Assembly (NCBI GenBank): GCA_965228735.1
Contig: OZ245838.1
Coordinates: forward strand, 3,360,001 to 3,424,000
DNA length: 64,000 nt
Direction: 5' to 3'
From: Planctomycetota bacterium
GTDB lineage: Bacteria > Planctomycetota > UBA1135 > UBA2386
Part shown: positions 8,665 through 33,302 of the stretch, piece by piece
How positions within the stretch are numbered: position 1 is the first letter of the stretch
Layout: every line of letters begins with the position of its first letter
Notes under the pieces: model-generated
Seen by the model: the letters and a program-made list of their open reading frames with translations, nothing else
Told to the model about the DNA's origin: nothing
The model's database searches: none
Made by a program: the position numbers and the translations under genes

Positions 8665-10026
8665 ATGCGCACTCGTCTGCCGTCGGCCACGATCGGCCTG
8701 TCTTCGTTCGTCACCGTCCTGCTGACCGCCACGGCCGTGAGTGCCCAGACCGAGTTCTGGGTCGACCCCGTGAACGGCAGCAACGGCAACACCGGCGCCT
8801 ACGACCAGCCGCTACTGACCGTGACGACCGCGCTCTCGCTCGCGGGCGCCAACGACCGGATCATGCTGCTGCCCGGCCTCTATGGCCCCACGTTCAACGG
8901 CGAGACGTTGCCGCTGTCCGTCGGTCAGGCGACGCAGCCCGGCGTCGAGATCCGCGGCGTCGGACGCACCGGCGACGTGGTGTTCGATCTCGCTGCCGGC
9001 GCGACCGCCGTGTTCCGGCTCATGAACGGCGCGGACGGCGCGCGCATCACCAACATCACGATCCAGAACATGGATCAGGTCGGCTGGTGGACGCGCGCGA
9101 TCAACAGCGGCAGCGGCGCCAACTCGGGCAACGCGGCCGACAACGTCGAGATCGATCGCTGCCAGTTCGTCGGCATCAACCGCGGCATCGTGCTGTGGAC
9201 CGCGGACAACTGCACGGGCTGGCAGGTGCACGACAACCTGTTCGTGAACTGCGCCAACGACGCGATCCTCGAGTACGTCGGCACGAACGAGTTCTCGCAC
9301 AACACGTTCTACTCCGGCGCGCAGAAGGCCTACATCAGCGACAGCTCGACGTCGACGTTCACCAACAACCTCATCGTCAACTACAACATTGCGTTCGAGA
9401 ACAACACGCCAGGCGCGCTGCTGAGCCGCTATCAGGGCAATTGGCTGTATCAGTGCACGACGAACCAGCAGGGCGCCGGCATGACCGGCACGCTGCCCCC
9501 ATCGAACGTGATCGGTACCGACCCCTTGTTCGTCAACGCCGCCGGCGGTGACTATCACGTGCAGCCGGGCAGCCCGACGATCGATGCGGGGGTCCTCCCC
9601 GCGATCGCGGGCGCCGACCTCGACGCGGTCTCGCGCCTCGTCGACGGCGACCTCGACGGCGTGCTCGAAGCCGACATCGGCTGCTACGAGGTCACGCCGC
9701 TCGATCTCGACATCAACTACGACCGAACGAGCGGCCTCATGCTGCTCGACGGCACGACGACGTTGTCGGGCGCCTACGCGTTCGTCGTGTTCTCGTTCGA
9801 CGACGGCGTCACGAGCTTCCCGGGCCAGGGCCCGATCCTGCTCGAACAGGCGTTCGTCGTGCCGTTCACGCTGCAGGGCCCGCTGCCGCAGCAATGGGCG
9901 CTGTCGTTCGCCAGCTACACGCCCCCGCCGGGCCAACGCCTCGTCTGCCAGATCCTCGGCGTCGCGAGCCCGACGCACGTCGGCGGCGCGGTGTTCGGCG
10001 GCAACCAGGTCTGGGTGCAGCTCTAG
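8665..10026 (+). CDS. Secreted right-handed beta-helix (DUF1565/pectin-lyase-like) protein with shared C-terminal module
   Basis: SD GGAGG; signal peptide SAQ; WVDPVNGSNGNTG..PLLT, DYHVQPGSPTIDAG and DIGCYE motifs. Confidence 0.8.
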   Translation: MRTRLPSATIGLSSFVTVLLTATAVSAQTEFWVDPVNGSNGNTGAYDQPLLTVTTALSLAGANDRIMLLPGLYGPTFNGETLPLSVGQATQPGVEIRGVGRTGDVVFDLAAGATAVFRLMNGADGARITNITIQNMDQVGWWTRAINSGSGANSGNAADNVEIDRCQFVGINRGIVLWTADNCTGWQVHDNLFVNCANDAILEYVGTNEFSHNTFYSGAQKAYISDSSTSTFTNNLIVNYNIAFENNTPGALLSRYQGNWLYQCTTNQQGAGMTGTLPPSNVIGTDPLFVNAAGGDYHVQPGSPTIDAGVLPAIAGADLDAVSRLVDGDLDGVLEADIGCYEVTPLDLDINYDRTSGLMLLDGTTTLSGAYAFVVFSFDDGVTSFPGQGPILLEQAFVVPFTLQGPLPQQWALSFASYTPPPGQRLVCQILGVASPTHVGGAVFGGNQVWVQL

Positions 10027-10057
10027 CCCGGCCAGCGGCGATACCGACGGCCGGCGG

Positions 10058-10160
10058 TACCGAACCCGTTTCGAATCCGCCACCTGCGAACCGGTCGGAG
10101 CGCGGAACGGAACCAGGGTTGGAGCGCCGCGGTGATGGCGGATTCGAAGCGGGTTCGGTA
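10058..10160. repeat. 25-bp inverted repeat (1 mismatch) enclosing 53 bp, between convergent genes
   Basis: taccgaacccgtttcgaatccgcca (10058-10082) vs tggcggattcgaagcgggttcggta (10136-10160). Confidence 0.85.
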
Positions 10161-10170
10161 ACGCCAAGAA

Positions 10171-10202
10171 CGCCCGGGCTCGCGGTTTCGCGAACCCGGG
10201 CG
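10171..10202. terminator. GC-rich hairpin between convergent genes (possible terminator or 3' stabiliser)
   Basis: cgcccgggctcgcg-gttt-cgcgaacccgggcg; no poly-U tail. Confidence 0.45.
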
Positions 10203-10224
10203 TCGGCGGTCGCTCGCGCTGGAG

Positions 10225-11445
10225 CTACAGGCCCTGGAGCACCCAGCTCTGGCAGTTGCTCAGCGCGGTGCCCGTGACACCGCCGCAGAGGACGACGCAC
10301 TGCGACGCGATCGGCAGACCGGCGAACGCGGGCACCGGCGGCGTCGCCACGTTGAACGTCGTCGAACCGTTGCAGCCCGCGACGCCGGACGTGATGTTGA
10401 AGCCGAGCGTCGGGCCGGGGCCGACGAGCAGCGGGCCGCAGAGCGGCGGGACGGTCGGAGCACCCGCCGAGCACGAACCGATCGACAGCAGGCACCACGC
10501 GAGCGCCGCTTCGGGCGCCTGGTCGAGGCCGAGCTGGATCGTGTTGCCGAGGATCGGCGCGTTGCGCAGGCTGTGCCAGTTGGTGCAGGTCGGGCACGTG
10601 CCGTTGGCGCACGGGTTGCCGGCCGGCGAGCTGCCGCGCGGGTGGAGCGTCAGATCGGTGTAGGGATCGTTCGGCGACTGCACGAACGGGCAGCACGTGA
10701 CGGGGCCGTAGGTGATCGCCGGGCCGGCTGCGACGTAGGCGTAGTTGAACGAGTAGGTGCTCGGGCCGTCGGTCCAGTAGAGCGTGGCGGCGCCCCAGTC
10801 CGCGGCCACGCCCTGCGGCGGGGTGAACGCGGCCGTGCACGACGGCATCGGCGAGACGGTGAACGGCGAGCACGGCGTCGCGATCTGCGCGACGTAGAGG
10901 TTGCCGCCGGTGGCGTTGATCGCGGTGTAGAACACGAGGCCGTTGCCGTCGTCGACGGCGACGCCGCTGATGCGGTCACCGGGCAACGTGTTGATCATGC
11001 ACTGCGCGACGATGACGGGCGGGCAACCGATGATGCACTGCGTGAGCCAGTTCTGGTCGTCGACGATCCAGAGCTGGTTCATCGACTCGACGACGTCGAG
11101 GCCGCTCGCGTTCGCGGCCGCGGAAGACTTCGGGCACGGCATCGGCGGGCACACGATCGTGCAGCCGGTCGTGCCGGTGTAGCTCGCGAGCACCTGGCCA
11201 CTCGTCGCCCAGGTGTCGTTCGTGGTGCCGTCGAACGCGGTGCCGCCGGCCGCGAAGCTCGTGTGCGGCGGCATGCCCGGCGCCGGGCAGCCCGGCATCG
11301 CGACGCAGGCACCGTGCACGGTGCGCGCGAGCGACTGCGTCGTGCGGGTAAGGCCATTGAGGGAGTAGCCCTGCGCCGCGACCGTGCCGGCCGTGAGCGC
11401 GATGGCGAAGAGGGAGGACGTGAGAACGTGGAAGTTGTTGGCCAT
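10225..11445 (-). CDS. Secreted Cys-rich (22 Cys) beta-propeller-like protein with a YWTD blade and shared C-terminal module
   Basis: Signal peptide AAQ; PQGVAADWGAATLYWTDG; C-terminus PPVPAFAGLPIASQ...ALSN. Confidence 0.75.
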   Translation of the reverse strand: MANNFHVLTSSLFAIALTAGTVAAQGYSLNGLTRTTQSLARTVHGACVAMPGCPAPGMPPHTSFAAGGTAFDGTTNDTWATSGQVLASYTGTTGCTIVCPPMPCPKSSAAANASGLDVVESMNQLWIVDDQNWLTQCIIGCPPVIVAQCMINTLPGDRISGVAVDDGNGLVFYTAINATGGNLYVAQIATPCSPFTVSPMPSCTAAFTPPQGVAADWGAATLYWTDGPSTYSFNYAYVAAGPAITYGPVTCCPFVQSPNDPYTDLTLHPRGSSPAGNPCANGTCPTCTNWHSLRNAPILGNTIQLGLDQAPEAALAWCLLSIGSCSAGAPTVPPLCGPLLVGPGPTLGFNITSGVAGCNGSTTFNVATPPVPAFAGLPIASQCVVLCGGVTGTALSNCQSWVLQGL

Positions 11446-11650
11446 GGGAGTGGGTTGGGTCAGGAGTCACCTCGGAAGGACCACCCCGGGCCGAGCGCAC
11501 GCGGAATCACCACGGATCGAACGCAATTCCGGCGGCTCTTGCGGACCTGGCCGATTGCGAACCGAATTCACCTCGAGAGCCGATTCTCGGGGCCACGGGC
11601 GATCCGCTGCCCGGACGTCGCCGTGCCATCGGGGCTTCACGGGACGGCAG

Positions 11651-11701
11651 GATTCGGTCACCATGCCGAATCATGACCGAGTTCGGCCCGAGAACCGAAT
11701 C
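11651..11701. promoter_or_regulatory. Two tandem TTCGG-N8-CCGAA palindromes straddling the satD-like start codon (candidate operator)
   Basis: gattcgg-tcaccatg-ccgaatc (11651-11672) and agttcgg-cccgagaa-ccgaatc (11680-11701); 29-bp period. Confidence 0.55.
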
Positions 11702-12389
11702 GACGTTCGTCGCCATCATCGCCGCCCGCGCGGGCCCCGATCGCCCCGATCGGCAGGATCCGCTGCGGCGCGCCGCGGACACGCTCAGCCGCGACCCGGA
11801 ACTCCGCCCCGCGCTCGCCGCCGACATCGAGGTGACCGCCGGGGACGCAGTGCAGGCGCTGCTCGCCTCACCGGTCGCCATCGTGCCGGTGTTGCAGCGA
11901 CTCAGTGACGCGATCCACCCCGAGCAGTTCGCGTTCGGGATCGGGGTCGGCTTGCTGAGCACGACGCTGCCGGCCGCGCGCTCGGCGCGCCGGCCAGCCC
12001 GGCTCGACGGTCCGTGTTGCCACGCCGCCCGCACGGCACTCGGAGCGGCGCAGAAGCGCGGCGCCTGGGCGACCGTCGCCGGGTTCGGCGCGCTCGACGA
12101 ACCGTTGACCGCGCTGCTCGAACTGATCGGCCGGCTGCGACAGCGCTGGACGGACAAGCAGGGCAGCTACGCGGTCGCGACCCGAACCGCGGCGCAGAAG
12201 GACGTCGCGGCGGAGTTCGACGTCAGTCCGTCGGTCGTCAGCGAGAGCCTCAAGGCCGCCAACTTCGACGTCGTGCGCCGCGGCGAGGCCGGCGCGATCG
12301 CGTTGTTCCGCCACTACGCCGGGCTCGAGCCGACCGCGCCAGAGAGCGACCCGGGCGCGCCCGCAGACAGCCGTCCGACACCCTCCTGA
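11673..12389 (+). CDS. SatD family protein (cyclase-like N-terminus, C-terminal HTH)
   Basis: TAGDAVQ, FGIGVG, DGPCCHAAR, WTDKQ...AQKDVAAEFDVSPSVVSESLKAA. Confidence 0.75.
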   Translation: MTEFGPRTESTFVAIIAARAGPDRPDRQDPLRRAADTLSRDPELRPALAADIEVTAGDAVQALLASPVAIVPVLQRLSDAIHPEQFAFGIGVGLLSTTLPAARSARRPARLDGPCCHAARTALGAAQKRGAWATVAGFGALDEPLTALLELIGRLRQRWTDKQGSYAVATRTAAQKDVAAEFDVSPSVVSESLKAANFDVVRRGEAGAIALFRHYAGLEPTAPESDPGAPADSRPTPS

Positions 12390-12442
12390 TCCTCGCAAGC
12401 GGCGCCGGTTTTCCGACCGCACCCGCGATACGATGCGCAGCC

Positions 12443-16135: not shown

Positions 16136-16156
16136 GGCCGAGCAGCCGCACGCGAC

Positions 16157-17965
16157 TCAACGCCGAACGAGCACCTGCACCGAGTTCGTCGCGTAGAGCT
16201 GCCCCGTCGCGGCCTCGTACGAGAAGCCCTGCACGTGGAACCGCAGACCCTCGAGGCTCGGATCGGCCGGGATCGGCACGGTCAGCGACGCGGTCGGCGC
16301 CGCGGCCGAGAAGCCGCCGAGGCCGAGCGGGACGACGGGCGTCGCGAGCAGGATGCGGCCGGACCAGCCGTAGAGCGGCTGGTTGTCGGGCGTCACGCTG
16401 CCGAGGAACGACCAGAGGTCGTTCGCCCCGGCACTGAACGGCGGCACGAGGTCGACGTAGGACGACAGCCCGGTGCGCGGTTCGCCGCGCAGCTTCAGAC
16501 CGCGCGCGATCCCCGTGGCCGCCAGCAACTCGGCGGCGTCCGGGCGGTTGCCGATGATCGGGATCGTCGGCGTGCCGGTGGTCTGCAGCAGACTGCGGAT
16601 CGCGGCGCCATCCAGCGCGGCCGCCGCCGCCGGATCGAGCTGCGCGACCGCGGCGCCGCGCAGACCGGCGACGACGCCCGTCACGATCGCGCTCGCCGAC
16701 GACGTGCCGCCGAACCCCGAGGCGTAGAGCTGGCGCGGATCACCCGGGTCGAACATCGTGCCGTAGCCCGCGGTCGTGACCCAGTAGCCCCAGCCGTTGC
16801 AGTCGATGCGCGAACCGTAGTTGCTGAAGTTGGCACGCGACGCGATGCCCGCGCCCGACGCCGCGACGACGATCGCCCCCGAGTCGCGCACGTTGCGATT
16901 GAACAGCCCCCCGAGCTGCGGATGGTCGAGATCGACGCTGCCGTTGCCCGCCGCCTCGACGACGATGATGCCGAGCCCGGTCGCGGTCTCGATCGCGTCG
17001 TAGATCAGCTGGTCCCACTCCACGGGCAGATACAGGAAGCCGATCGGCCCGGCGATCTGCTGCTCGATCAGCAGCACGTCGCCGGCGGACAGAACCGTCA
17101 ACCCGGTGAGGATCGCGCCCGCGACGTCGGGCCAGCCGAACGCTTCCGACGTCGACACGTAGAACTCGACATCGGGCGCCAGACCCGTCACGCCGTAGCG
17201 GTCCGGATCGGCAGCGATGATGCCGGCGACCGCGGTGCCGTGGTCCTCGTAGAAGCCGCCGAACGGCAGTCCCACGTTCGAACTCGGCCGCAGTGCCGAG
17301 ATGTCCTCGTGCTGCAGCTGCCAGCCGTACTCGACGTCGACCACGCGGATGCCGTTCCCCGAACCGCCGGTCAGGAACAGTAACGCCGCGGCATCGACGC
17401 CCGACGGTGCGGGCATGCGGTGCCCCTGGAACGTCGTGAAGTCGGGCGTCGTCGGCGGGATGTCGCCGAACGGCCGCGCAGCCTCGGTCGAGAGCACGCC
17501 GGGCGGCGGCGCGGGCAGCGACCGGACGTAGGCGAGCTCGACGACCGCGAGTTCGTTGAGTGCGCGCACGAGCGCGCGTGAATCGTGACCGCCGGTCGTC
17601 GTCACCTCGAAGTAGAGCCCGAAGTCGACCGCGGGCCGCGCCCCGTCCGGCAGCGAGGCGAGCTGGCGGGCGCGCAACGCCGCGAGCTCACGCTCCTGGC
17701 GTTCGAAGAACGGCCGCACCTGCCGGCCGCCGAGCACCTCGCGGATCGAGGCATCGACGATGCGCCGGTCGCGCACGAGCTCCGGCCGGCCCTCGACGAG
17801 CTTCACGAGCACCCGATCCTGCGCCGCCGCGACGGGCAGGTCGTTGGCGATCGCCTTCGGCATGACGACGCGCCGCGGCATACCTGCCTGCGCGCAGAGC
17901 GGACCGAGACCGGCGGAGAACGTCATCGCGAACGCGGCGACGCCGAGCAGGGAGCAGCGGTTCAT
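16157..17965 (-). CDS. Secreted S8 (subtilisin-like) serine peptidase with shared C-terminal module
   Basis: Triad motifs VVDVE, DHGTAV, GGTSSAS; oxyanion AAGN; signal peptide CAQ. Confidence 0.92.
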   Translation of the reverse strand: MNRCSLLGVAAFAMTFSAGLGPLCAQAGMPRRVVMPKAIANDLPVAAAQDRVLVKLVEGRPELVRDRRIVDASIREVLGGRQVRPFFERQERELAALRARQLASLPDGARPAVDFGLYFEVTTTGGHDSRALVRALNELAVVELAYVRSLPAPPPGVLSTEAARPFGDIPPTTPDFTTFQGHRMPAPSGVDAAALLFLTGGSGNGIRVVDVEYGWQLQHEDISALRPSSNVGLPFGGFYEDHGTAVAGIIAADPDRYGVTGLAPDVEFYVSTSEAFGWPDVAGAILTGLTVLSAGDVLLIEQQIAGPIGFLYLPVEWDQLIYDAIETATGLGIIVVEAAGNGSVDLDHPQLGGLFNRNVRDSGAIVVAASGAGIASRANFSNYGSRIDCNGWGYWVTTAGYGTMFDPGDPRQLYASGFGGTSSASAIVTGVVAGLRGAAVAQLDPAAAAALDGAAIRSLLQTTGTPTIPIIGNRPDAAELLAATGIARGLKLRGEPRTGLSSYVDLVPPFSAGANDLWSFLGSVTPDNQPLYGWSGRILLATPVVPLGLGGFSAAAPTASLTVPIPADPSLEGLRFHVQGFSYEAATGQLYATNSVQVLVRR

Positions 17966-18046
17966 GGCTTCCCGCACATACTCCGGCCGGAGCGCGCGGT
18001 AACGCAACAGGGCGCACCTGGCCGCATGGAGAACGAGCGGAAACGC

Positions 18047-21578: not shown

Positions 21579-21704
21579 GCGTCGCCTCCCCGGCGCGCCG
21601 TCCACCAAATCCGGTCTGGACGAACGCCCCCTCCGGTCAGTAAGACTGCGTCGTTCCCGGTGGTTGCCGGGGCGCTCCATGCCACCATCAGGAGGGGGCA
21701 CCGA

Positions 21705-23453
21705 ATGACGAGCCACGGTAGCGGACAGGGTCAGCTGTTCGCCGGTCCAGACAGCAGCAAGGCGGCAGACGACATGGCGACGAAGAAGGCGGCCAAGGCG
21801 CCGTCGAAGGGCAAGCGTTCGCGCACCGAGACGGCCGAGTCGATGGCCAAGCGCCAGCGCGAGATCTCGGTCAGCGAGTTCTTCACCAAGAACCGTCACC
21901 TGCTCGGGTTCGACAGCCCGCGCAAGGCGCTGCTCACGGCGGTCAAGGAGGCGGTCGACAACAGCCTCGACGCGTGCGAGGAAGCGCGCATCCTGCCCGA
22001 CCTGCGCGTCGAGATCCGGCGCGTGAAGGGGCAGGACAACCAGTTCACGATGATCGTCGAGGACAACGGCCCCGGCATCGTGAAGCAGCAGGTGCCGAAC
22101 GTGTTCGGCCGGCTGCTCTACGGCAGCAAGTTCCATCGCCTGCGGCAGAGCCGCGGCCAGCAGGGCATCGGCATCTCGGCGGCGGGCATGTATGGCCAGC
22201 TGACGACGGGAAAGCCGGTGCGCGTGCGCAGCAAGACCGGGCCGCGCGCCGTCCCCCACCAGTTCGACATCCGGATCGACACGGCGAAGAACAAGCCGAT
22301 CACGACCGACAAGGCGATCGAGTGGGAGAAGAAGCGCGGCACCGAGGTCGCGATCGTGCTCGAGGGTGAGTACCGCCGCGGGCAGCGCTCTGTCGAGGAG
22401 TTCATCAAGCTGTGCGCGGTGGCCAACCCGCACGTGACGTTCACGTTCGTCGACCCCGACGGCAACGAGACGGTCTACGAGCGCGGCACGAAGGAACTGC
22501 CGAAGGAGGTCGAGGAGATCAAGCCGCACCCGCACGGCGTCGAGCTCGGCATCCTGCAGAAGATGATGCAGGACAGCGAGAACCGCACGGTCTCGGCGTT
22601 CTTGCAGAGCGACTTCTCGCGCGTCGGCGGCACGGTCGCGAAGAAGATCTGCGAGACCGCGGGCATCAAGCCGACGACCAACCCGCGGCGGCTGGCGACC
22701 GCGGACGCGCAGAACCTCAAGAAGGCGATCGACGCGACCAAGATCAAGGCGCCGCCCTTGAGCTGCATCGCGCCGATCGGCGAGGAGCTGATCATCAAGG
22801 GGCTCAAGAAGGAGGTCGAGGCCGACTACTACATCGCGAGCTCGCGCAACCCGGTCGTCTACCGCGGCCGGCCGTTCGCCGTCGAGGTCGGCCTCGCCTA
22901 CGGCAAGATCGGGCAGTCGCTCGAGATGACGGAGACGGGCAAGATCGTCCAGGTCACGAAGAAGCAGCAGAACCAGGACGCGCTCATGGGTGACGCCGAC
23001 GACCCGGTGAAGCTCATTCGCTACGCCAACCGCGTGCCGCTGCTCTTCCAGCAGTCGGCGTGCGCGGTCACCAAGGCCGTGATCGGCACCAACTGGCGCA
23101 ACTACGGGCTGAGCCAGCCGCGCGGCGCGCTGCCCGTCGGCCCGATGGTCATCTTCGTGCACATCGCGTCGGTGTGGGTGCCGTTCACGAGCGAGTCGAA
23201 GGAGGCGATCGCCGGCTACGACGAGATCCAGGCCGAGCTGCGGCTCGCCCTGCAGGAGTGCGGCCGCAAGGTCGGCATCCACGTGCGCAAGGGCAAGAAG
23301 CTCGCCAACGAGTTCAAGAAGCGCAACTACATCGAGACCTACATCCCGCACGTCGTCGAGGCGCTCAAGGACATCCTGTCGCTCGACGAGAAAGCGACGA
23401 CCAAGGCCACGAGCAACCTCACCGAAGTCCTCGAGAAGAGCCGCAAGCTCTAG
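21705..23453 (+). CDS. top6B: DNA topoisomerase VI subunit B
   Basis: [47 protein letters not shown]2TH region, [23 protein letters not shown]. Confidence 0.97.
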
Positions 23454-23462
23454 GAGTCACCC

Positions 23463-24632
23463 GTGGCAGCAAGGAAGAAGAAGGCCATCAAGAAGGCGGC
23501 TCCCAAGAAGCGCAAGAAGCCGATGACCAGGCTCGACAAGGTCACGGTGGAGCAGATCGACGACTGCGCGCAGCACGTCTACGGCAAGATCAGCAAGCGC
23601 GACAAACCGGAGCTCAAGTACCCCGAGCGCTCGCTCAAGAACGCGCGCTACGACAAGAAGAAGGGCGGCTTCCAGATGGGTCGTGGCCGCGTCGAGCGCA
23701 CGCTCACGGTCAACACCGTCAAGACGTTCGCGCAGTCGCTCAAGCTCATGGCGATGAGCAAGGAGATGGTCGTCCAAGACGACTTCGCGACCAAGCGAGA
23801 GGCCTACTACGTCAGCAAGAACTGGGGCGAGGCCAAGTTCAACGAACAGCACGAGTCGGACACCGCGATGGACGACATCGAGGCGCTGTTCAGCCTGCAG
23901 GGCGTCACGCGCGAGCAGCTGCGGTTCCGCCCCGAGGACCACGGCGGCAACGTTGCCGGTTCGCTGGTCGTCATCGATCGTGACCGCGAGACCGGTGCCG
24001 AGGAGCGCATCGACTGCACGCGCTTCGGCAGCGGCTCGTACACGATCCCCAATTCGGTCGAGCACTTCCGGTTCGAGACCAACGCCAAGTTCGTTCTCGT
24101 GATCGAGACCGGCGGCATGTTCTCACGCCTGCACGAGCACAAGTGGTGGCGCGACAGCAACGCGATCATCATCGGCACGAGCGGCGTGCCGACGCGCAGC
24201 ACGCGCCGCTTCATCCGCAAGCTGTCGGACGACAAGAAGCTGCCGGTCTACTGCTTCAACGACTGCGATCCGTACGGGATCAGCAACATCTACCGCACGC
24301 TCAAGGTCGGCTCGGGCAACGCGGTGCACCTCAACAAGTTCTTCTGCGTGCCGCAGGCGCGTTACCTCGGCGTGACGCCGCAGGACATCCTCGACTTCGA
24401 GCTGCAGGACGCGACGCACAAGCTCAAGGAGGTCGACATCAAGCGCGCCAAGGACGCACTCAAGAACGACCCGTTCTTCCAGGCGCACAAGGAATGGCAG
24501 AAGGCCATCCAGCAGATGCTCAAGATGGGCGTCCGCGCCGAGCAGCAGGCGCTCGCGAAGTGGGGCCTGAACTTCGTCATCGACGAGTACCTGCCGCGCA
24601 AATTGGCCGAGCCGAAGAAGTTCCTGCCGTAG
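23463..24632 (+). CDS. top6A: DNA topoisomerase VI subunit A (Spo11-like)
   Basis: TKREAYY catalytic-Tyr motif, Q.ESD, TOPRIM IETGG, GVP..STR, DCDPYG, AEQQAL; 9 bp after top6B with AGGAG SD. Confidence 0.97.
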   Translation: MAARKKKAIKKAAPKKRKKPMTRLDKVTVEQIDDCAQHVYGKISKRDKPELKYPERSLKNARYDKKKGGFQMGRGRVERTLTVNTVKTFAQSLKLMAMSKEMVVQDDFATKREAYYVSKNWGEAKFNEQHESDTAMDDIEALFSLQGVTREQLRFRPEDHGGNVAGSLVVIDRDRETGAEERIDCTRFGSGSYTIPNSVEHFRFETNAKFVLVIETGGMFSRLHEHKWWRDSNAIIIGTSGVPTRSTRRFIRKLSDDKKLPVYCFNDCDPYGISNIYRTLKVGSGNAVHLNKFFCVPQARYLGVTPQDILDFELQDATHKLKEVDIKRAKDALKNDPFFQAHKEWQKAIQQMLKMGVRAEQQALAKWGLNFVIDEYLPRKLAEPKKFLP

Positions 24633-24739
24633 CGGGGCCTGCCGGCGGCGCCGCGACGGTTCCGGGTGACCTCGGGCCCCACCCGGGGCTATCGTGGCCC
24701 GGGAAGGGTGGGGAGAAGCTCCACGTTCGGATCCCGACC

Positions 24740-26146
24740 ATGCCGACCCGCTGCCCCGTCGTGACGGCTGCCGCCGTCCTGCTCACCGCTTCGTCCGTCA
24801 CAGCCCAGCTCGACTGGCTGCAGGCCGCGATCACGAATCGACCGATGGCGCGTCACGAAGCTGCAATGACGGCGGACGCCACGGGCTCGGGCGTGCTGCT
24901 GTTCGGTGGCAGCACCAACGGCGGCGTCGCCAACGACACCTGGCGCTGGAGCGGCAACGCGTGGCAGCAACTCACACCGGCCAACAAGCCCCCGGCGCGG
25001 TACGGCCCGCGCATGGTCACGGACACGACGCGAAACGTAGTCGTCATGTTCGGCGGTGTTGATCAATTGCTGCTGACACCGTTCGGGGACACCTGGGAGT
25101 GGAACGGCCAGGACTGGACGCAGCGGACACCGGCCGGTTCGCCGGCTCCCCGGAGCGGCCACGCGATGGCGTTCGACAACGCGCGCTCTCGCACGGTGCT
25201 GTTCGGCGGGCGCGCCGGCACGATCCTCCTCGATGACACGTGGGAGTGGGACGGGACACAGTGGCAACAGCAGACGCCAACGGCCGCCCCGCCCGCCCAG
25301 GAGGGTCACGACATGGCATACGACGCCGCGCACGGCTTCGTGGTCATGGCCGGCCTGACGGACATCGTGCCCGTGGGCTCATCGCCCACCATGCCAGGGA
25401 CGTACAAGTGGAACGGCACCCGGTGGTTCTTCGTCGGCGAGCGCCCGCCGGGCAACGGCGGACGGCTGACGTATGACGCAGCCCGCGAACGCGTGGTCCT
25501 CTACGGCGGCGAGGGCGGCAACGGCGTGCCGGCGCCCGTCGGCGTGTGGGACTGGGACGGTCGGCTGTGGCACAGCCGCACTACGGCGACCAACCCGCCG
25601 CTGCGGTTCTGGCACATGCTCGCCTACGATCCGAGCGCCGAGACGATCGTCGCGTTCGGCGGCCGCGATGACACGCAGCCGCCACTGCAGATCCGCAAGA
25701 ACGACACCTGGCTGCTAGGGCCCGTCACGCCGGCCAGGACCCAGATGTTCGGCACCGGCTGCAGCGGCAGTCAGGGCATCCTGGAGCTCGACGCTCCCGG
25801 CCGACCGTGGCTCGGCAGTCCGTTCCTCGCGGAATGGCGGAACACTCCGAGCGCCACGCTCCTCGCTGCGATCCTCGGCGGTTCGAACCAGAGCTGGGGC
25901 ACCACACCGCTGCCGCTCGACCTCGGCGCGTTCGGCATGCCGGGCTGCGACCTGCTCGTCGCTCCCGACGCCATCGCCGCGATCTTGCCATCGAGCCACG
26001 GCTACACGCTGACGATCCGAATCCCGGCCAACACCGCACTGCTCGGTCAGACGCTCTACCTGCAGGGCATGGCCCTCGACCCGACCGCGAACGCCGGCGG
26101 CGCCATCGCGAGCAACGGCCTCGAGTTCACGATCGGCAGTCGGTGA
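24740..26146 (+). CDS. Secreted Kelch-repeat protein with shared C-terminal module
   Basis: Signal TAQ; repeats P.AR.GH.MA.D..R...VLFGG....DTWEWDG..W. Confidence 0.88.
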   Translation: MPTRCPVVTAAAVLLTASSVTAQLDWLQAAITNRPMARHEAAMTADATGSGVLLFGGSTNGGVANDTWRWSGNAWQQLTPANKPPARYGPRMVTDTTRNVVVMFGGVDQLLLTPFGDTWEWNGQDWTQRTPAGSPAPRSGHAMAFDNARSRTVLFGGRAGTILLDDTWEWDGTQWQQQTPTAAPPAQEGHDMAYDAAHGFVVMAGLTDIVPVGSSPTMPGTYKWNGTRWFFVGERPPGNGGRLTYDAARERVVLYGGEGGNGVPAPVGVWDWDGRLWHSRTTATNPPLRFWHMLAYDPSAETIVAFGGRDDTQPPLQIRKNDTWLLGPVTPARTQMFGTGCSGSQGILELDAPGRPWLGSPFLAEWRNTPSATLLAAILGGSNQSWGTTPLPLDLGAFGMPGCDLLVAPDAIAAILPSSHGYTLTIRIPANTALLGQTLYLQGMALDPTANAGGAIASNGLEFTIGSR

Positions 26147-26220
26147 GCTCGGCGGAGTCGACGTAGAACCGGAACCGCTGCCCCGGAACAGGCCACCGAT
26201 ACGGTCCGATCGATCACGAT

Positions 26221-26300
26221 CGTGCCAACTTGTCACCTTAGACATTTTGTCATTTTCAAGATGACAGGCTATGTTACGTGCCAACAATAGACGATGACAG
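26221..26300. promoter_or_regulatory. AT-rich promoter/operator region upstream of the AbiE-like operon
   Basis: Imperfect palindrome tgtcattttcaagatgaca (26248-26266); direct repeats cgtgccaac (26221, 26277) and gatgacag (26260, 26293). Confidence 0.55.
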
Positions 26301-26321
26301 AAGGGACTCCTGTTGCCCCCC

Positions 26322-27365
26322 ATGATCGATGGCCTCGAACTCATCCACGCGATCGCCGCGCGAGTCGACCCCGCCAGAGGTGCGGCCACTCCGCACACGC
26401 GAGCCACGAGGCCTGATCAAGACGGGGGTTACAGCGGCTCGATCCAACTGCGGAACGGCCGCCGCGAACCCGCGGTGCTCTACCCGATCCGAGGCGCTCT
26501 CGGGATGCTTGCCGTCGATCGACTGGCCAACGTCACCAGCGGTGAAAGGCGCCCGCGGATCGTTCTGGCCACGCTCATCGGCGCCAAGGTCGGCGCCGCC
26601 CTCGCTCGCCATGGGATCGGCTACCTCGATCTCGCGGGCAATTGTCACCTGGAACTCGACGGCGGCGAGGTAACGATCCACATCGAAGGTCGGCGCCAGC
26701 CCGAGCACACACGCGCTTCGGCCGGAGCCCTGCGCGAAGCCGGCTATCGGGTGTTGTTCGCCCTGCTCGCCGATGAGAGCCTCCTGGCACAGACCGTTCG
26801 CGAACAAGGCGACGTGGCCGGCACGAGTCGGCACGCCGCCCACACCCTGCTCACGCGGCTTCGTGACGAAGGCCTGCTCATTCGCACCGGCCGTAGCGCT
26901 CACGTGTTTGCGCCCCACGGTCGCGCCGCGTGCATCGATCGCTTCACGAACGGCTGGGCCGACGTCCTGCGGAGCCGACTCGACCTCGGCCGTTTTCGAC
27001 TGCGCCAGTCCGACCCGGACGCGGCAGCACAGCATGTCGCAACCGTCATGCGCGCGACGGGAATACCATTCGGCTTCGGAGCGACGCGGGGTTCCGCGCG
27101 TTGGTTGCACCACCTGGAGAGCAACGAGACGACGATCCATGTGACCGATTGGCCTCCTGACCTGGCGCGACGCCTCGACGCGGCGCCGGATCGCGATGGC
27201 ACGCTGCAGGTGTTTCGAACGATGTCGATCCATGATCTATCCGCAGAGTTCGAGGAAACAGCGCATCCGTTGCTCATCCACGCCGAGCTCGCTCGCTCCA
27301 GTGATCCACGCGCCCGGGAGACGGCGATCCTGATGGCCGGACACCTGCGAACGGAACCTGGTTGA
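26322..27365 (+). CDS. AbiEi-like type IV TA antitoxin / transcriptional regulator (AbiEi_2-type)
   Basis: IGYLDLAGNCHL, wHTH-like middle region, C-terminal HPLLIHAELARSSDPRARETA; alternative TTG start at 26313. Confidence 0.8.
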   Translation: MIDGLELIHAIAARVDPARGAATPHTRATRPDQDGGYSGSIQLRNGRREPAVLYPIRGALGMLAVDRLANVTSGERRPRIVLATLIGAKVGAALARHGIGYLDLAGNCHLELDGGEVTIHIEGRRQPEHTRASAGALREAGYRVLFALLADESLLAQTVREQGDVAGTSRHAAHTLLTRLRDEGLLIRTGRSAHVFAPHGRAACIDRFTNGWADVLRSRLDLGRFRLRQSDPDAAAQHVATVMRATGIPFGFGATRGSARWLHHLESNETTIHVTDWPPDLARRLDAAPDRDGTLQVFRTMSIHDLSAEFEETAHPLLIHAELARSSDPRARETAILMAGHLRTEPG

Positions 27366-28168
27366 TGGCGCCCGATCACCACGCACTGCTCGCGCGACTC
27401 GCCAGCTCGGTGCCCGGCCGTCGCATCGTCGTGGTCGGCGCAGCCGCACTGCGTTGGCATTTCCCGTCGTTCCGTGCGACCCTCGACCTCGATGTCTGCA
27501 TCGCGATCGATCGCCTCGAACTCGATCGTGCCGACCGGTTGCCGAGCGAATGGTCGCGACACTCGACGCTACCACACCGTTGGACGACACCGACGAACGA
27601 GATCGTCGACGTCTTGCCCGCGGCGCCCGATCTGCTCGACACGGGCAAGGTGTCGTGGCCAGACGGCACGACGCTGGATCTCACCGGCATCGATCTCGCG
27701 ATGCGGGACAACACGACCTACAGCGACCAACTACCGCCGGATGTTCGCGTGGCGACCCGCCGTGCCTTGTTCCTGACCAAGGTGGCCGCGTTTCTCGATC
27801 GGCCGCACGAACGCCAGAAGGACCTCGGCGACCTCGCGTTGCTCATCGATCGTTACGTCGAAGACGACGATCCGAGGTGCTTCGACGCGCCAGAGCTCAG
27901 ACGGGCAGCGGACCACGGCCACGACATCGAGTGGGATCTGCGACCGGCGTTCCTGCTCGGCGCCGACCTACGAGCCGTCTGTACTCGGCGTCACACGGCC
28001 CGCCTGCGAACGTTCAGCGATCAAGTTCGCGATCCACAACATCGCGAACACCACTGGCTCCGGCAGTCCGCTCCCGCCTCGTGGCAATCCGATCCCGCGG
28101 CGCTATCGGACCGGATGAACGCGCTCACATCCGGGTTCGACGGCTTCTCGAATCACGGCCGGTCGTAA
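27365..28168 (+). CDS. AbiEii-like nucleotidyltransferase toxin
   Basis: VVGAAAL...RATLDLDV (G-x/DxD NTase motif), K.AAFLDR, KDLGDL; TGATG coupling to the antitoxin gene. Confidence 0.82.
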   Translation: MAPDHHALLARLASSVPGRRIVVVGAAALRWHFPSFRATLDLDVCIAIDRLELDRADRLPSEWSRHSTLPHRWTTPTNEIVDVLPAAPDLLDTGKVSWPDGTTLDLTGIDLAMRDNTTYSDQLPPDVRVATRRALFLTKVAAFLDRPHERQKDLGDLALLIDRYVEDDDPRCFDAPELRRAADHGHDIEWDLRPAFLLGADLRAVCTRRHTARLRTFSDQVRDPQHREHHWLRQSAPASWQSDPAALSDRMNALTSGFDGFSNHGRS

Positions 28169-28217
28169 CGGCCGCCCCGGTGTCGCAACCGCCAGCGACC
28201 CCGTATCCTCGCCGGCG

Positions 28218-30017
28218 ATGCGCGCGCTGCCTCTCTCGCTCCTGCTCACCGCCTGCGCGACCGCGCCGGCGCAATACCCGCCGGGACTGATCCTGCCGCC
28301 GCGTTCGCCGAACGCGGTCACGGGCACGCAGCTGCGTCCCGCGCTCTCGAACCTCGCGCTCGCGGACCGCGAACAGCTCCTGTGGCACGAGCTCGCGGCC
28401 GGAAACGTGCCGACGTTCTTGCGCACGCTCGTGCCGATCACGACGTCCGCGGTGATCCAGGGCCAGACGCGCACCGCGACGTTCTGGTGCACGCCCGACT
28501 ACGTCGGCATCGGCCGGGACAGCGACTGGTTCCGCATGCCGATGACGCCGACGCTCGCGCAGCAGCTGGCCGATCGTCTCGAGTGCGTGCTGCCGACGCG
28601 CAAGATGGTCGACGCGATCTGGACGCACGCGCCGGTCAAACTCGCGCCGTTCCCCTACCACCCGTCGTCCTACAACATCCTCTCGAGCGACCTGTTCCAT
28701 CAGCACCACCTGCAGATCGAATCGCAGCGCGGTGGTGCTCAGCAGAACCTGCTGACCGCGGGCATCAAGAAGGACGTCGTGAGCTCGGCGCGCATCGCGA
28801 CCAACCCGGGGCGCGTCTGCATCTACGGCTGGCACTACCAGAGCGGCACGCCGATCCAGCCGCTCTACAGCGGCCACACGATGTCACACGTCGACTACAG
28901 CCACGGCATCCGGCTCGTGGCCCGCGCGATGGAAGTGGACGGTCAGCGCACGACCGTGGACTCGGTGCTCGCCGATCCGCACCTGCACGTGCTGCTCAGC
29001 GACGAAGGCGCGTTCAGCAGCTGGCGCTATGCGACGGGCACGGTCGAGTCGTTCCCGTTCCGCGATCGCTTCCCGGCGGGCGGGCCCGAACGCACGAGCT
29101 GGCGCGCGAAGTTCACGAGTCCCGTGTCCGTACCGGCTCCCGCGACCGCACCGGCGCCGAGCGGCGATCCGACCGTGCTGCGCATCATGGACCCGGCGGG
29201 CGGCACCGACACGCTGCGCGTCTCTCCCGGACTCGTGACGGACGTCGGCTTCGAGGCGGACCTGCTCTGCCTGCACCGACCGCAGCTGACGGCCGACGGC
29301 TTCGAACGGATCGGCATCTTCGTGCGCGACCGGGCGAACGGTGCGTTCGAGGGCACGTTGTCACAACAGGGCGCGTGCTTCGCGCTCACCTGGGACTCGC
29401 ACACCGGCCGCCTGCAGTGCCTGCGCGCGCACGGCGGCGCGGTCGTCGACCTGTTGCCGGCGCCGCGATTCGTTCCCGGCACCGCGTGGCGCCGCTTTCG
29501 CATCGAGGCCGCGGGATCGGCGCTGGCGTTCTTCCTCGACGGCGAACGGCTGCTGTCCGTGACCGACGGCTCGCACCCGCACGGCGACTTCGGCATCGGC
29601 TACCACGAATACTTCGCGACCAACGCCAACATGCGCGGCACGCTCGTCGACCGCTGCCACGCCGACGTGCCCGGCGCGTTCGCCATGTCATTCCGCCCCG
29701 GCCCGCTGCCCGGCTCGCTCGTGCTGCGGCGCCGCCGCGGCATCCCGGGCGACCCGACGTTCACCGCGATCACGACCGTGCCCGGCCAGTTCCCGAACGG
29801 CTGGTTCTTCGGCCTCGACCCGACGCCGGCCGACCTGCTGTGGCAGGCGCAGTCCGGCCACCCGCTCTTCGTCACGAACCTCGACAGCTCGGGCAATCGC
29901 GACTTCTTCGCGAGCGGGCTGCCGCTCGGCCTGCCCGTGCAGGGGGTCGCGCTCGATCTCGACCCGTCGCTAAGGCGCTGGCAAGCGAGCCGGCCGACGG
30001 CCATCACCGTGCGCTAG
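28218..30017 (+). CDS. Secreted multidomain protein: uncharacterised N-terminal enzyme-like domain, ConA-like beta-sandwich, shared C-terminal module
   Basis: Signal peptide (APAQ, or LTAC lipobox); MPMTP..AQ..AD...LPT.KMVD, KKDVV, IYGWH, PIQP, HVDYSHG; W..FRIE..G....FFLDG...G.FGIG. Confidence 0.7.
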   Translation: MRALPLSLLLTACATAPAQYPPGLILPPRSPNAVTGTQLRPALSNLALADREQLLWHELAAGNVPTFLRTLVPITTSAVIQGQTRTATFWCTPDYVGIGRDSDWFRMPMTPTLAQQLADRLECVLPTRKMVDAIWTHAPVKLAPFPYHPSSYNILSSDLFHQHHLQIESQRGGAQQNLLTAGIKKDVVSSARIATNPGRVCIYGWHYQSGTPIQPLYSGHTMSHVDYSHGIRLVARAMEVDGQRTTVDSVLADPHLHVLLSDEGAFSSWRYATGTVESFPFRDRFPAGGPERTSWRAKFTSPVSVPAPATAPAPSGDPTVLRIMDPAGGTDTLRVSPGLVTDVGFEADLLCLHRPQLTADGFERIGIFVRDRANGAFEGTLSQQGACFALTWDSHTGRLQCLRAHGGAVVDLLPAPRFVPGTAWRRFRIEAAGSALAFFLDGERLLSVTDGSHPHGDFGIGYHEYFATNANMRGTLVDRCHADVPGAFAMSFRPGPLPGSLVLRRRRGIPGDPTFTAITTVPGQFPNGWFFGLDPTPADLLWQAQSGHPLFVTNLDSSGNRDFFASGLPLGLPVQGVALDLDPSLRRWQASRPTAITVR

Positions 30018-30220
30018 GAGCCCGGTCTACGAGAAGAGCCCAGCCAGGTCGCTACTGGCGCTCGGCGACTTCGTCCGTCTCGGTTGGCAAGTGGGTCGAC
30101 GTGGACCGCGGCCCGCCAGCTGGCCTGCATCGAGCACCCCACCTGCGTCGATTCGCGACGAAATCCGGTGCGGCGCGGCGGTCGTCTCACGCTCATCGGG
30201 AGGAACCCAGAGGTCGCCCG

Positions 30221-31357
30221 ATGAAACCGACTGCCATCCTCACGCTCGTCGTCCTGCTCTCCTCGGCCGCCGCGGCCCAGACCTTCGTCGTCGATGCGAA
30301 CAACGGGCCGGGCGCGAGCTTCACCTCGATCGCCACGGCCGTGGCCGCGGTCCCCGATGGCGCCGTGCTCGAGGTGCGCGCCGGCGCCTACGACTCGTTC
30401 GCGATCCAGAACAAGAGCCTCACCGTGCTCTGCGACCCGGGCACGTCCGTTGCCGCGACCGGGCTCTTCGCCAACGCGTTCGCGAACGTCTCGGACCTTG
30501 CGGCCGCCCAGAGCGTCACGATTGCGGGGCTCTCATTCAGCGGGTTGCTCGTCACGGGCATCATCGCGTGCGTAGACTGCGCGGGTACGGTCGTCATCGA
30601 TCGTTGTACGATAGGCAGCAGCTTCGGCCCGATGGGCCGCGTCCAGGCGACGGACTGCGACAACGTGGTCGTGCGCGACTGCATGGTCGCGTCACGGGAG
30701 ATCGGGCCCGGCGCCATCCAGTGCGTCGACAGCAACATGCTTCTCTCGGGCTGTGACATCGACGGCGAGTCGTTCGCGATCCGACTCGGTGGCGGCCGCG
30801 TACACGTGACCGACTGCATCCTCGCGAGCACGCCACAGAACATCCAGTTCGCGACGGCGGTCTGCTTCCTCACCGGCGGCGAGCTCGTGCTCAACGGCAG
30901 CACGCGGCTGAGCTCCACCGCGAGCACACCGCAGCCCGCGGCGGTCGGCAACGGCTTCGTCGCGCTCGATCCGAGCACGGTGTTCTCGGGACTCACGAGC
31001 CCGCCCTTCGATCCGAACCTCACGGTCACGACGCGCCCGATCCCGCGGCTCACGTCGTCACGTGGCCTGCTCGGCGGCGTCGCGAACGCTTCGCTCGCGG
31101 TGCCGATCGGCGGCAGCGGCGTGCTCTGCGTCGGTTTCGCCGGCGGTCCGGCGGCGGTGCCCGGCGTGATCGATCCGATCTGGCTCCAGACCGGCGCTGT
31201 GCTCGAAGCACTGGGCAGCGGACCCGTTCTCGCCGGTGCCTACGCGGTGCCCAACGCGCCGTGGGTGATCGGCGTGCAGATCGCGTGGCAGGGCGTCGTG
31301 CTCGATCCAAACGGCGCCGTGCGGGCGAGCAACGCGGCGGTGTATACGCACTACTGA
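30221..31357 (+). CDS. Secreted pectin-lyase-like beta-helix protein with shared C-terminal module
   Basis: Signal AAQ; VVDANNGPGASFTSIATAV...VRAGAY start typical of beta-helix exoproteins. Confidence 0.75.
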   Translation: MKPTAILTLVVLLSSAAAAQTFVVDANNGPGASFTSIATAVAAVPDGAVLEVRAGAYDSFAIQNKSLTVLCDPGTSVAATGLFANAFANVSDLAAAQSVTIAGLSFSGLLVTGIIACVDCAGTVVIDRCTIGSSFGPMGRVQATDCDNVVVRDCMVASREIGPGAIQCVDSNMLLSGCDIDGESFAIRLGGGRVHVTDCILASTPQNIQFATAVCFLTGGELVLNGSTRLSSTASTPQPAAVGNGFVALDPSTVFSGLTSPPFDPNLTVTTRPIPRLTSSRGLLGGVANASLAVPIGGSGVLCVGFAGGPAAVPGVIDPIWLQTGAVLEALGSGPVLAGAYAVPNAPWVIGVQIAWQGVVLDPNGAVRASNAAVYTHY

Positions 31358-31458
31358 TCTGCTCGCTGGTCGCAATTCTCCTACGACCACCGCACGCTGC
31401 CGCCCACCGTGGCGTCCGGAGCGAAGCCCGCGACATCCCTCGCCGGACGGACGCCGAC

Positions 31459-31914
31459 TCAATCGAACACGAACGGCGGCCGCCCGCGCTTTTCCCGCAT
31501 GCCGTTCATCGCGCGCAGGATCGCGGGGCGGCGCACGATGCGGCGCTCGAGCGCGTGCTTGCCCGGGAAGTCCATGATCAGCAGCCCGACGAGGATCATC
31601 AGCAGGCCCTGGCCGGGCAGCAGCAGCAGGATGAGGCCGACGATCACGAGCACCGTGCCGAACGTGTTGCGCAGGACGAGCCAGAGCCAGCCGAGCAGCG
31701 ACCGTTGCCGTGCGCGCGCCGCCGTCGAAATCGCGAAACGGTCGGCCGGCAGCCGCGCGACGAGCAACGGCAGGAACACGATGGCGAGCAGGACCGTGCC
31801 GACACCCGTGCCGAACATCGTCCAGAACACGACGGGGCTCGCGAGCCAGTCGAGCACCGGCTCCCACCACGCGGACGGTGCCGCGGGGTCGCCCGTCGCC
31901 GGGTCCTGCGTCAA
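31459..31914 (-). CDS. PGPGW-family two-TM membrane protein
   Basis: GLILLLLPGQGLLMILVGL..MDFPGK..LE...RPPF; TTG start overlapping the upstream TGA. Confidence 0.82.
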   Translation of the reverse strand: MTQDPATGDPAAPSAWWEPVLDWLASPVVFWTMFGTGVGTVLLAIVFLPLLVARLPADRFAISTAARARQRSLLGWLWLVLRNTFGTVLVIVGLILLLLPGQGLLMILVGLLIMDFPGKHALERRIVRRPAILRAMNGMREKRGRPPFVFD

Positions 31915-33302
31915 CTCCCGACCGTCGCGCGACCGGCGTCGGAGGCCGTGACGCCCGCAGCGTTGCCCGCGAGCGGGTCGAACACCGCGGCCTGCACGTA
32001 GAAGACGAGACCGTCGAAGCCGCTCGGGATCGACAGCAGCCACTGCACCGAAGAGCCGCCGTGCCCCTGCGTCGCGCCGAAGTCGATCGCGGTGTAGAGC
32101 GTGCACCCCGGCATGCCGAAGCCGGCGAGGCCGAGCGGCAACGGCGCGCCGTTCCAGTTCTGGTCGTCGAAGCCGAACGCGAGATAGCAGAGTCCGGCAG
32201 CAGTCGGCAGGTTCGTCAGTTCGAGCGTGAACACGGAGTTGCTGCGCGGCAGCGAACCCGCGAGTGGCTGCAGCTGCGGCACGCCGCCGCTGCCCGCGCA
32301 ACCCTGGCCGAACGCGAGGTAGTCGGCCTGCACGCCGCCGGCGAACTCCCACGTCTCGCGGAACCACGTCTGCAGGTTACCCGTCGCGCCGCCGTAGACG
32401 ACGAGGTTCCCGGCCGGCACGTTCGCCGCGATCATCATGCCGGTGCGTGAGCTCGGCGTGCCGGACTGCAGGATGGTCCACGCGCTGCCGTCGTAGGCGA
32501 ACGTGTCGGTCGAGAACGTGCCGTTGGGCGTGCGCCCGCCGTAGAGCACGCTCGCACCGGTCGCGAGGTCGAACGCCATCGCGGCGCCCATGACGCCGAG
32601 GCCCGGCGTCGCGGACGGCGCCGGGCCGACCGTCGCGGTGACGTTCGTCCAGTCCACGCCGTCATACTCCCAGGTGCTCTGATCGGGCGCGCCGAACAGG
32701 CTCGTGCCGCCCGTCAGCACGCAGACGTTGCGGATCGGATCGAAGCACATCGATGACCGGTAGCTCTCGCTCGGCGCGCTCGCCGTCGCCACCGACGTCC
32801 AGGTCGTGCCGTCCCATTCCCAGGTGTCCGTGAGCTCGAACGGCGCATTCGGGTTCGTCGTGCCGCCGAAGAGCACGGTCACCTGCCGCGCCGAGTCGTA
32901 GGCCATGACGTGGCCCTGGCGCGCCGGCGGACTCGTGGCCGGCGACGCGAGGGTCCAATCGGTCCCGTCCCACTCCCAGGTGTCACCGAGCACACCGCTC
33001 GCGCCGAGGCCGCCGAACATCACGAGTCGACCGCGCGCGACGTCGTCGGCCATCGCGTTCTCCCGGCGCGCGGGTGGTGCCGTCGCCGGCGTGAGCTGCA
33101 CCCAGTCCTGCGCGCGATAGGCCCACGTCTGCCCCAGCGCCGGCCAGCCGCCGAACTGGATCACGTCTGCGGTCACGAGGTGGCCGGCCATCGCGCCGTC
33201 GCGCACGTTGCCGGGGTCGGACGTCGTCGAAACCGGGGTCCAGGACTGGGCGGCAAGGGACGTCGCCGACAGAGCAGCGCACAGCAGAACGGGACGATTC
33301 AC
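31911..33302 (-). CDS. Secreted Kelch-repeat protein with shared C-terminal module
   Basis: Signal AAQ; PPARQGHVMAYDSAR..TVLFGG...DTWEWDG repeats; GTG start. Confidence 0.88.
   Translation of the reverse strand: MNRPVLLCAALSATSLAAQSWTPVSTTSDPGNVRDGAMAGHLVTADVIQFGGWPALGQTWAYRAQDWVQLTPATAPPARRENAMADDVARGRLVMFGGLGASGVLGDTWEWDGTDWTLASPATSPPARQGHVMAYDSARQVTVLFGGTTNPNAPFELTDTWEWDGTTWTSVATASAPSESYRSSMCFDPIRNVCVLTGGTSLFGAPDQSTWEYDGVDWTNVTATVGPAPSATPGLGVMGAAMAFDLATGASVLYGGRTPNGTFSTDTFAYDGSAWTILQSGTPSSRTGMMIAANVPAGNLVVYGGATGNLQTWFRETWEFAGGVQADYLAFGQGCAGSGGVPQLQPLAGSLPRSNSVFTLELTNLPTAAGLCYLAFGFDDQNWNGAPLPLGLAGFGMPGCTLYTAIDFGATQGHGGSSVQWLLSIPSGFDGLVFYVQAAVFDPLAGNAAGVTASDAGRATVGS

Follow-up and report, generated by a model that had tools for sequence, protein, structure and literature searches.

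A recurrent Ig-like terminal domain on predicted exported proteins of Planctomycetota and its possible role in docking at the envelope

The locus examined here is a 64,000-nucleotide stretch of a Planctomycetota genome, referred to as the window. It corresponds to positions 3360001-3424000 of contig G000:C1, the single contig of the 7.19-Mb source genome (G000), which has a G+C content of approximately 70%. The question raised by the locus is whether seven predicted secreted proteins with different folds end in one and the same module, and what such a module would do. A shared C-terminal module with a sorting or anchoring role had been proposed in a first-pass annotation. A common domain was found on five of the seven proteins. 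It is not a feature of the locus alone and is encoded by approximately 323 genes genome-wide. The tail may well be an autonomous, disulfide-stabilised, immunoglobulin (Ig)-like beta-sandwich acting as a putative envelope docking module, a reading that is put forward tentatively.

All seven open reading frames (ORFs) and the C-termini quoted for them were present in the sequence as described. Sec signals had been ascribed to all seven proteins. Signal-peptide-like N-termini were recognized by eye in 7/7, that of 28218 carrying a lipobox-like LLLTAC. The proteins are named by the first coordinate of their genes, which are as follows.

8665-10026, plus strand, 453 aa: Pfam passenger DUF1565/NosD-type beta-helix
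10225-11445, minus strand, 406 aa: Cys-rich, no Pfam passenger
16157-17965, minus strand, 602 aa: Pfam passenger Peptidase_S8
24740-26146, plus strand, 468 aa: Pfam passenger Kelch
28218-30017, plus strand, 599 aa: lipoprotein-like, no Pfam passenger
30221-31357, plus strand, 378 aa: Pfam passenger Beta_helix (weak)
31911-33338, minus strand, 475 aa: Pfam passenger Kelch

The last 150 residues of each of the seven proteins were compared pairwise by BLASTP. The tails of 24740 and 31911 formed the sole significant pair (2e-17). The value for 16157 and 24740 was 0.01 and all remaining pairs were above 0.4. A profile was seeded on the 24740 tail and iterated over the 53,303 stop-to-stop ORFs (at least 70 aa) of the source genome, with E-values scaled to 53,303 ORFs. 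With phmmer the 24740 tail alone matched many ORFs, nearly all at their very end. Test E-values were taken from models built without the sequence tested, and the profile rounds were named it2 and it3. Of the seven proteins said to share the module, 10225, 16157, 24740, 30221 and 31911 do so, 8665 is a possible case and 28218 is unsupported. The tails are listed below.

25718..26143, plus strand: terminal domain of the Kelch protein 24740-26146, residues ~327-467; profile seed, E 1e-38 to 8e-55
31914..32333, minus strand: terminal domain of the second Kelch protein 31911-33338, residues ~336-475; BLASTP 2e-17 to 24740, profile E 4e-33
16160..16507, minus strand: terminal domain of the subtilase 16157-17965, residues ~487-600; without the Cys pair, E 4e-6 (round 2, model without it)
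10228..10641, minus strand: terminal domain of the Cys-rich protein 10225-11445, residues ~269-403; E 8e-4 (round 2, model without it) and 5e-12 later
30986..31354, plus strand: terminal domain of the beta-helix protein 30221-31357, residues ~256-373; without the Cys pair, E 7e-5 (round 3, model without it)
9703..10023, plus strand: possible distant member, tail of the beta-helix/choice-of-anchor-Q protein 8665-10026, by hhalign of an orthologue profile
29595..30014, plus strand: tail of the lipoprotein-like protein 28218-30017, membership not demonstrable, without a hidden Markov model (HMM) match

At round 2, with a model that did not include it, the 30221 tail scored E 0.015. The tails of 8665 and 28218 gave nothing against the family HMM (E > 500), and neither has paralogues in the source genome. 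Orthologues of both tails were gathered from related genomes and aligned, and the resulting profiles were compared with the family alignment. The 8665 orthologue profile matched the family profile with an hhalign probability of 59% and an E-value of 9.4e-5 over 88 colinear columns. The AlphaFold 2 (AF2) model of the 8665 tail was a moderately confident all-beta unit with a predicted local distance difference test score (pLDDT) of 64. Because of the profile match and the all-beta model the 8665 tail may be a distant member of the family. Residues 297-343 of the same protein, directly before the divergent tail, had a weak match to choice-of-anchor Q (NF041518, E 2.6e-4), which fits the following region being an anchor-type module. 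The 28218 tail could not be shown to be a family member. Its hhalign probability was 0.4% as a single sequence and 0.2% as an orthologue profile, and it had no HMM match. This 155-aa tail is 57-70% identical across six related genomes with many invariant residues and constitutes a separate family without a Pfam name.

The source genome contained 323 ORFs with the domain at E <= 1e-3 (hmmsearch --max), equivalent to approximately 7% of 4592 crude gene calls. Each of the 323 carries one copy at most. With default filters 235 ORFs were matched at round 2 and 284 at round 5, compared to 245 and 323 with the filters off. The analyses of cysteines, passengers and signal peptides and the first position survey rest on the 284-ORF default-filter set. 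The domain genes are scattered along the genome with moderate clumping (mean 1.13 per 25-kb bin; seven bins with at least 5 genes vs. 1.7 expected), and the five member genes of the window form one such clump.

The lineage range of the domain is part of Planctomycetota. A match was present in 40 of the 41 nearest genomes, the source genome included, among them every one of the 24 further genomes of the same family. Genomes of that family had 137-842 first-look candidates each, of which up to 97 per genome were scored. Genome G027, of the same order (2.9 Mb, 91% complete), had 0 domain matches. Across a phylum sample of genomes at least 85% complete, a match was found in 26 of 121, spread over approximately 13 families, some of them beyond the order of the window. 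A library of 1.84 billion representative proteins returned 26,229 matches at E <= 1e-3, with 12,895 at E <= 1e-10. Sixteen homologues with a source name were recovered from a collection of 5.8 billion proteins. Most were named hypothetical protein and one was an FG-GAP repeat domain-containing protein. The tail look-alikes and the source names of homologues were from Planctomycetota.

The profile consensus is approximately 135-142 residues in length and reads FG.GC.GS.G.P.L...G.P.LG..F.L.L...P......L..G.S....PLPLDL...G.PGC.L.V.PDA........G.A...L.IP.DP.L.G..L..Q..VLDP..N..G...SN.L.L.IG. The motif reported in the first-pass annotation, [IV]P..G..Q..DP..SN..stop, corresponds to the last third of a domain of ~135 aa. 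The first two thirds hold FG.GC.GS...P.LG and PLP.DL..G.PGC. A beta-strand closes the tails, and their last residue is variable. Paralogues are 19-42% identical to the 24740 seed. Both cysteines of the two Cys columns were present in 154 copies of the 284-ORF set, neither in 87 and one in 43. As the two columns co-vary, the conserved cysteines probably form a disulfide, which is consistent with a non-cytoplasmic location.

An AF2 model of the 24740 tail, made with a 45-paralogue alignment, had a pLDDT of 96.3 and a predicted TM-score (pTM) of 0.88. It showed an eight-strand Ig-like beta-sandwich. An Ig-like fold had been guessed earlier and agrees with this model and with the generic Ig, fibronectin type III (FN3) and macroglobulin (MG) domain matches of the structure searches. 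The best VIA-align match was to an MG domain (Z 8.3), followed by Ig and FN3 domains at approximately Z 7. The top Foldseek matches were ML-domain lipid binders (NPC2, Der p 2) with a probability of up to 0.99 and TM-scores of 0.3-0.4. Kinship with ML domains was set aside as these TM-scores are too low. The tails of the seven proteins had no Pfam-A or NCBIfam match at E <= 0.1, in agreement with the view that the module matches no known family. Tails of 40 sampled paralogues had nothing at Pfam E <= 1e-4 or NCBIfam E <= 1e-3. A sequence search of the PDB gave best E-values of 0.26 (single tail) and 0.44 (profile). No description of the domain was found in the literature, going by titles and abstract openings.

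The domain was C-terminal in 260 of the 284 ORFs, and 252 of these had a passenger of at least 50 aa. The 252 passengers fell into 88 BLAST clusters, comprising 68 singletons and a largest cluster of 91 members. Forty proteins were sampled for Pfam analysis: six from the largest cluster, two from the second, one each from clusters 3-20 and 14 random singletons. Pfam families were found on 15 of the 40 sampled passengers and none on the other 25. The named passengers included two subtilases (S8), a trypsin-like and a papain-like (C1) protease, Laminin_G_3, and two FG-GAP proteins. BNR, sortilin-type and DUF5122 propellers, PPC, a di-haem cytochrome c peroxidase (CCP_MauG), DUF4394, DUF4397 and DUF5711 were also represented. 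The proposal that unrelated passengers precede a shared module on secreted proteins was upheld by the 88 clusters and the diversity of Pfam families. N-termini of the members resemble Sec signal peptides and show ..AQ as the cleavage motif. A crude signal-peptide heuristic was positive in 148 of 284 members compared to 426 of 2091 control ORFs, values which indicate enrichment and are not a measured rate. Judged from these N-terminal sequences, the domain proteins are probably exported.

The first-pass annotation had raised the expectation that HMM matches are always C-terminal, which is true of most copies. At most 5 residues separate the end of the domain from the stop in 289 of 323 copies (~90%), and 6-15 residues do so in seven. 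A segment of 16-50 residues follows the domain in 14 copies, and more than 50 residues follow it in 13, where it is N-terminal or internal. Approximately seven ORFs of the source genome consist of a signal peptide and the domain only. The database matches ended within 5 residues of the protein end in 149 of the 150 best.

The cases with more than 50 residues after the domain that were inspected (284-ORF set) have it directly after the signal peptide, followed by a long passenger with a G+C content at third codon positions (GC3) of 0.87-0.96, which is coding-like. For one of the N-terminal cases (P0017), an orthologue from a different genus (G003) shows 65% identity over residues 7-925 of 926, so that the N-terminal layout is conserved rather than artefactual. 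A FastTree tree of 312 domains required 12 changes for the 13 N-terminal tips compared to a shuffled mean of 12.9, which argues that the N-terminal copies are not one subfamily; the tree is weakly resolved. Among BNR propellers the domain is N-terminal in one protein (L082) and C-terminal in others (L067, L054). The trailing segments that were inspected (284-ORF set) were 32-44 residues long, with a strand-like motif at the end that is conserved. In this subfamily of ~14 proteins the domain seems to be inserted ahead of the final strand of a preceding, Pfam-less domain. Two further stand-alone proteins (P0018, P0020) were present among nine database proteins examined. Examples of these two layouts on G000:C1 are as follows.

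2026848-2027924, minus strand: trailing-segment subfamily
2282327-2283466, minus strand: trailing-segment subfamily
5469596-5470912, plus strand: trailing-segment subfamily
6752-7918, minus strand: trailing-segment subfamily
499799-500227, plus strand: stand-alone domain
3195220-3195687, minus strand: stand-alone domain
864546-865034, plus strand: stand-alone domain
5666873-5667421, minus strand: stand-alone domain

A sorting or anchoring role, as suggested in the first pass, is the most natural reading of these data. Docking or anchoring fits best because the domain is self-folding, position-tolerant, terminus-preferring, single-copy and carried by a large part of the exported proteome and also occurs alone. 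In the proposed mechanism a domain-bearing protein would first be exported by Sec. The domain would then dock hundreds of different proteins (enzymes, propellers and beta-helix proteins) on a single envelope partner shared by all, for which a surface glycan or lipopolysaccharide, a scaffold protein and other copies of the domain are candidates. The domain would probably bind rather than act as a cleaved C-terminal signal. A strictly C-terminal signal of the kind known from type IX secretion systems (T9SS) is disfavoured because N-terminal, trailing-segment and stand-alone copies occur, Por_Secre_tail had no match, and SprA and PorU were not found, the negative control for SprA being weak.

Several points weigh against docking. 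The extreme C-terminal position of ~90% of copies and of 149/150 best database matches is also expected of a secretion signal. No P/T-rich linker precedes the domain, unlike in many dockerin-bearing enzymes. The neighbour analysis of the source genome produced no partner or machinery candidate, only paralogues, ECF sigma factors and kinases. The fold matches are generic (VIA Z <= 8.3, Foldseek TM <= 0.48) and gave no ligand hint. The signal-peptide heuristic is rough and the domain tree is poorly resolved.

The first-pass annotation had pointed to a secretin/GspK/GT-C operon in the window as candidate machinery. The secretin is located as follows.

43058..44590, minus strand: secretin (Pfam Secretin 4e-37)

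Its neighbours are T2SSK-like, GT2, PMT_2-like and epimerase genes. Homologues of this secretin (E <= 1e-10) were present in 116 of 121 sampled genomes, and the domain was present in 26 of the same 121. The source genome had five matches to it at E <= 1e-10. In G147, a genome of the same family (96% complete) in which 33/33 scored candidates were domain-positive, the best secretin match was 72 bits with 30% identity. The highest cross-genome secretin scores were found in domain-positive genomes, which are also the closest relatives. The secretin was rejected as domain-specific machinery since the two are not conserved together and the domain-rich G147 lacks a close orthologue of it; a specific link of the sorting role to this operon is not supported.

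Enrichment of neighbouring genes was examined in the source genome using the 4592 crude gene calls and 765 neighbours, with p-values that are biased by cluster seeding. The enriched neighbours were divergent paralogues missed by the filters, a cluster resembling extracytoplasmic function (ECF) sigma factors and CarboxypepD_reg (30/81), and a kinase/tetratricopeptide repeat (TPR) cluster (41/157). The enrichment of the ECF-sigma and kinase/TPR clusters beside domain genes hints that many domain-bearing secreted proteins sit in small regulatory modules.

Other explanations of the tails were weighed against docking. That there is no shared module, and that the likeness of motifs arose by chance from the biased composition of a 70% G+C genome, has a negligible probability. 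Most of the pairwise BLASTP comparisons among the seven tails were not significant, as such chance would predict. It is contradicted by profile E-values of 8e-4 to 4e-6 from models without the tested sequences, by the 26,229 database matches, by the confident AF2 model and by the consistent match position at the ORF end. Chance was rejected for five of the seven tails. A folded secretion tag, by which a secretin-based type II-like system or another translocon would carry the tagged protein across the outer membrane, is somewhat unlikely but a serious rival. It would account for the presence of a single copy on each of hundreds of unrelated signal-peptide proteins, for the ~90% of copies at the extreme C-terminus and for the C-terminal placement in 149/150 best database matches. 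The size and fold are like those of the T9SS C-terminal domain (CTD), and the five secretin matches in the source genome at E <= 1e-10 also favour it. Recognition of a folded domain in type II secretion would tolerate an N-terminal position. Stand-alone proteins comprising a signal peptide and the domain have no cargo, however, and only paralogues and regulators were enriched beside the domain genes. SprA, PorU and Por_Secre_tail were not found, although SprA and Por_Secre_tail were positive in no control genome, and the window secretin is not co-conserved (116/121 vs. 26/121).

A lectin-like or substrate-binding module for an external polymer, particle or other cell is distinctly unlikely. 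A beta-sandwich with conserved loop motifs is typical of carbohydrate-binding modules, copies occur at either end and alone, and there is the weak Foldseek likeness to lipid-binding ML domains (TM 0.3-0.4). Against this, the passengers in the 40-protein sample are mostly not glycoside hydrolases, and the domain is strictly single-copy without tandems in 323 ORFs. It would also be unusual for ~7% of gene calls to share one ligand specificity. The alternative offered in the first-pass annotation, self-association of hundreds of proteins into a surface coat or lattice, is very improbable. Stand-alone copies could be fillers in such a lattice, but with paralogues at 19-42% identity to the seed, a homotypic interface common to all of them is less likely.

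The seven flagged genes are not an operon. They are interspersed with unrelated genes for topoisomerase VI, an AbiE toxin-antitoxin pair, a hybrid histidine kinase and a Ser/Thr kinase. The main features observed beside them are listed below.

21660-24629, plus strand: adjoining topoisomerase VI genes, subunit B (Topo-VIb_trans, HATPase_c) and subunit A (TP6A_N, Toprim)
26313-28165, plus strand: AbiEi/AbiEii type IV toxin-antitoxin pair, flanked by two of the flagged genes
57188-60940, plus strand: 1251-aa protein with five K319L-like PKD domains, a REJ-like region and an RTX repeat, without the terminal domain
61000-63999: two HlyD-type membrane-fusion genes, after the gene of the 1251-aa protein

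Topoisomerase VI is a type IIB topoisomerase which is mainly archaeal and eukaryotic and uncommon in bacteria. The AbiEi/AbiEii stretch has a lower G+C content (0.67) and a weak GC3 coding signal and may therefore be horizontally acquired. The PKD/RTX protein and the HlyD genes may be the substrate and the adaptor of a type I secretion system.

The domain is carried by ~7% of the crude gene calls of the source genome and by at least 26,229 public protein clusters and is unnamed in Pfam-A and NCBIfam. Little is understood of how proteins of Planctomycetota come to lie on the unusual envelope of these bacteria or outside it. A portable unit shared by hundreds of adhesin-like proteins, proteases and propellers offers a handle on this placement, and could define the surface or secreted proteome from sequence alone. 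With a library entry, tens of thousands of proteins, many labelled hypothetical at present, would receive their first domain annotation. Possible uses are as a surface-display tag and as bait for a receptor or machinery. A broader proposal, which is doubtful at present, is that part of Planctomycetota has an undescribed sorting system with a folded Ig-like tag on at least about one third of exported proteins and a dedicated, putative receptor or translocon. Such a system would be a functional parallel of type IX secretion or cellulosome docking and unrelated to either.

Among known terminal modules, the CTD of the T9SS is also a small beta-sandwich that forms the C-terminus of many unrelated Sec-exported proteins, with one copy in each and up to hundreds per genome. 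The present domain differs in being longer (~135 aa), in its Cys pair, in its additional N-terminal, stand-alone and pre-trailing-segment positions, and in its phylum, Planctomycetota. The type A CTD models (TIGR04183/PF18962) had no match on the seven tails (E <= 0.1), and TIGR04183 had 0 in the source genome with 9 candidates scored. TIGR04131 represents the type B CTD. No SprA or PorU (TIGR04189 and NF033707, 0 matches each) and no Por_Secre_tail was found in the source genome, with no control genome positive for SprA or Por_Secre_tail. PEP-CTERM and MYXO-CTERM likewise tag the C-termini of many secreted proteins within one lineage. Those tags comprise a motif of ~25 residues, a transmembrane helix and a basic tail, whereas the present domain is a folded unit of 135 aa without a terminal hydrophobic helix. 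PEP-CTERM (TIGR02595) had two matches in the source genome, both on other ORFs, and other terminal tags are rare there. The PPC domain (PF04151) is another C-terminal beta-sandwich, borne by secreted proteases as well as by other exported proteins. PF04151 had no match on any tail of the seven proteins or the 40-protein sample. One protein (L055) has PPC at residues 236-310, upstream of the terminal domain, and as it holds both the two are distinct.

Dockerins (PF00404; GC-type NF041540) are small calcium-binding helical folds. They resemble the present domain in being terminal, mostly C- and sometimes N-terminal, in occurring once per protein and in docking varied exported proteins. The present domain is all-beta and Ig-like without a sequence match to them, and the neighbour analysis gave no cohesin-like partner candidate. 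PF00404 and NF041540 had 0 matches in the source genome and none on the seven proteins. Without a model in Pfam-A or NCBIfam, the domain is a variant within the known class of terminal sorting and docking modules. In the role proposed here it would tether many proteins to an envelope partner, as SLH domains and dockerins do in other bacteria.

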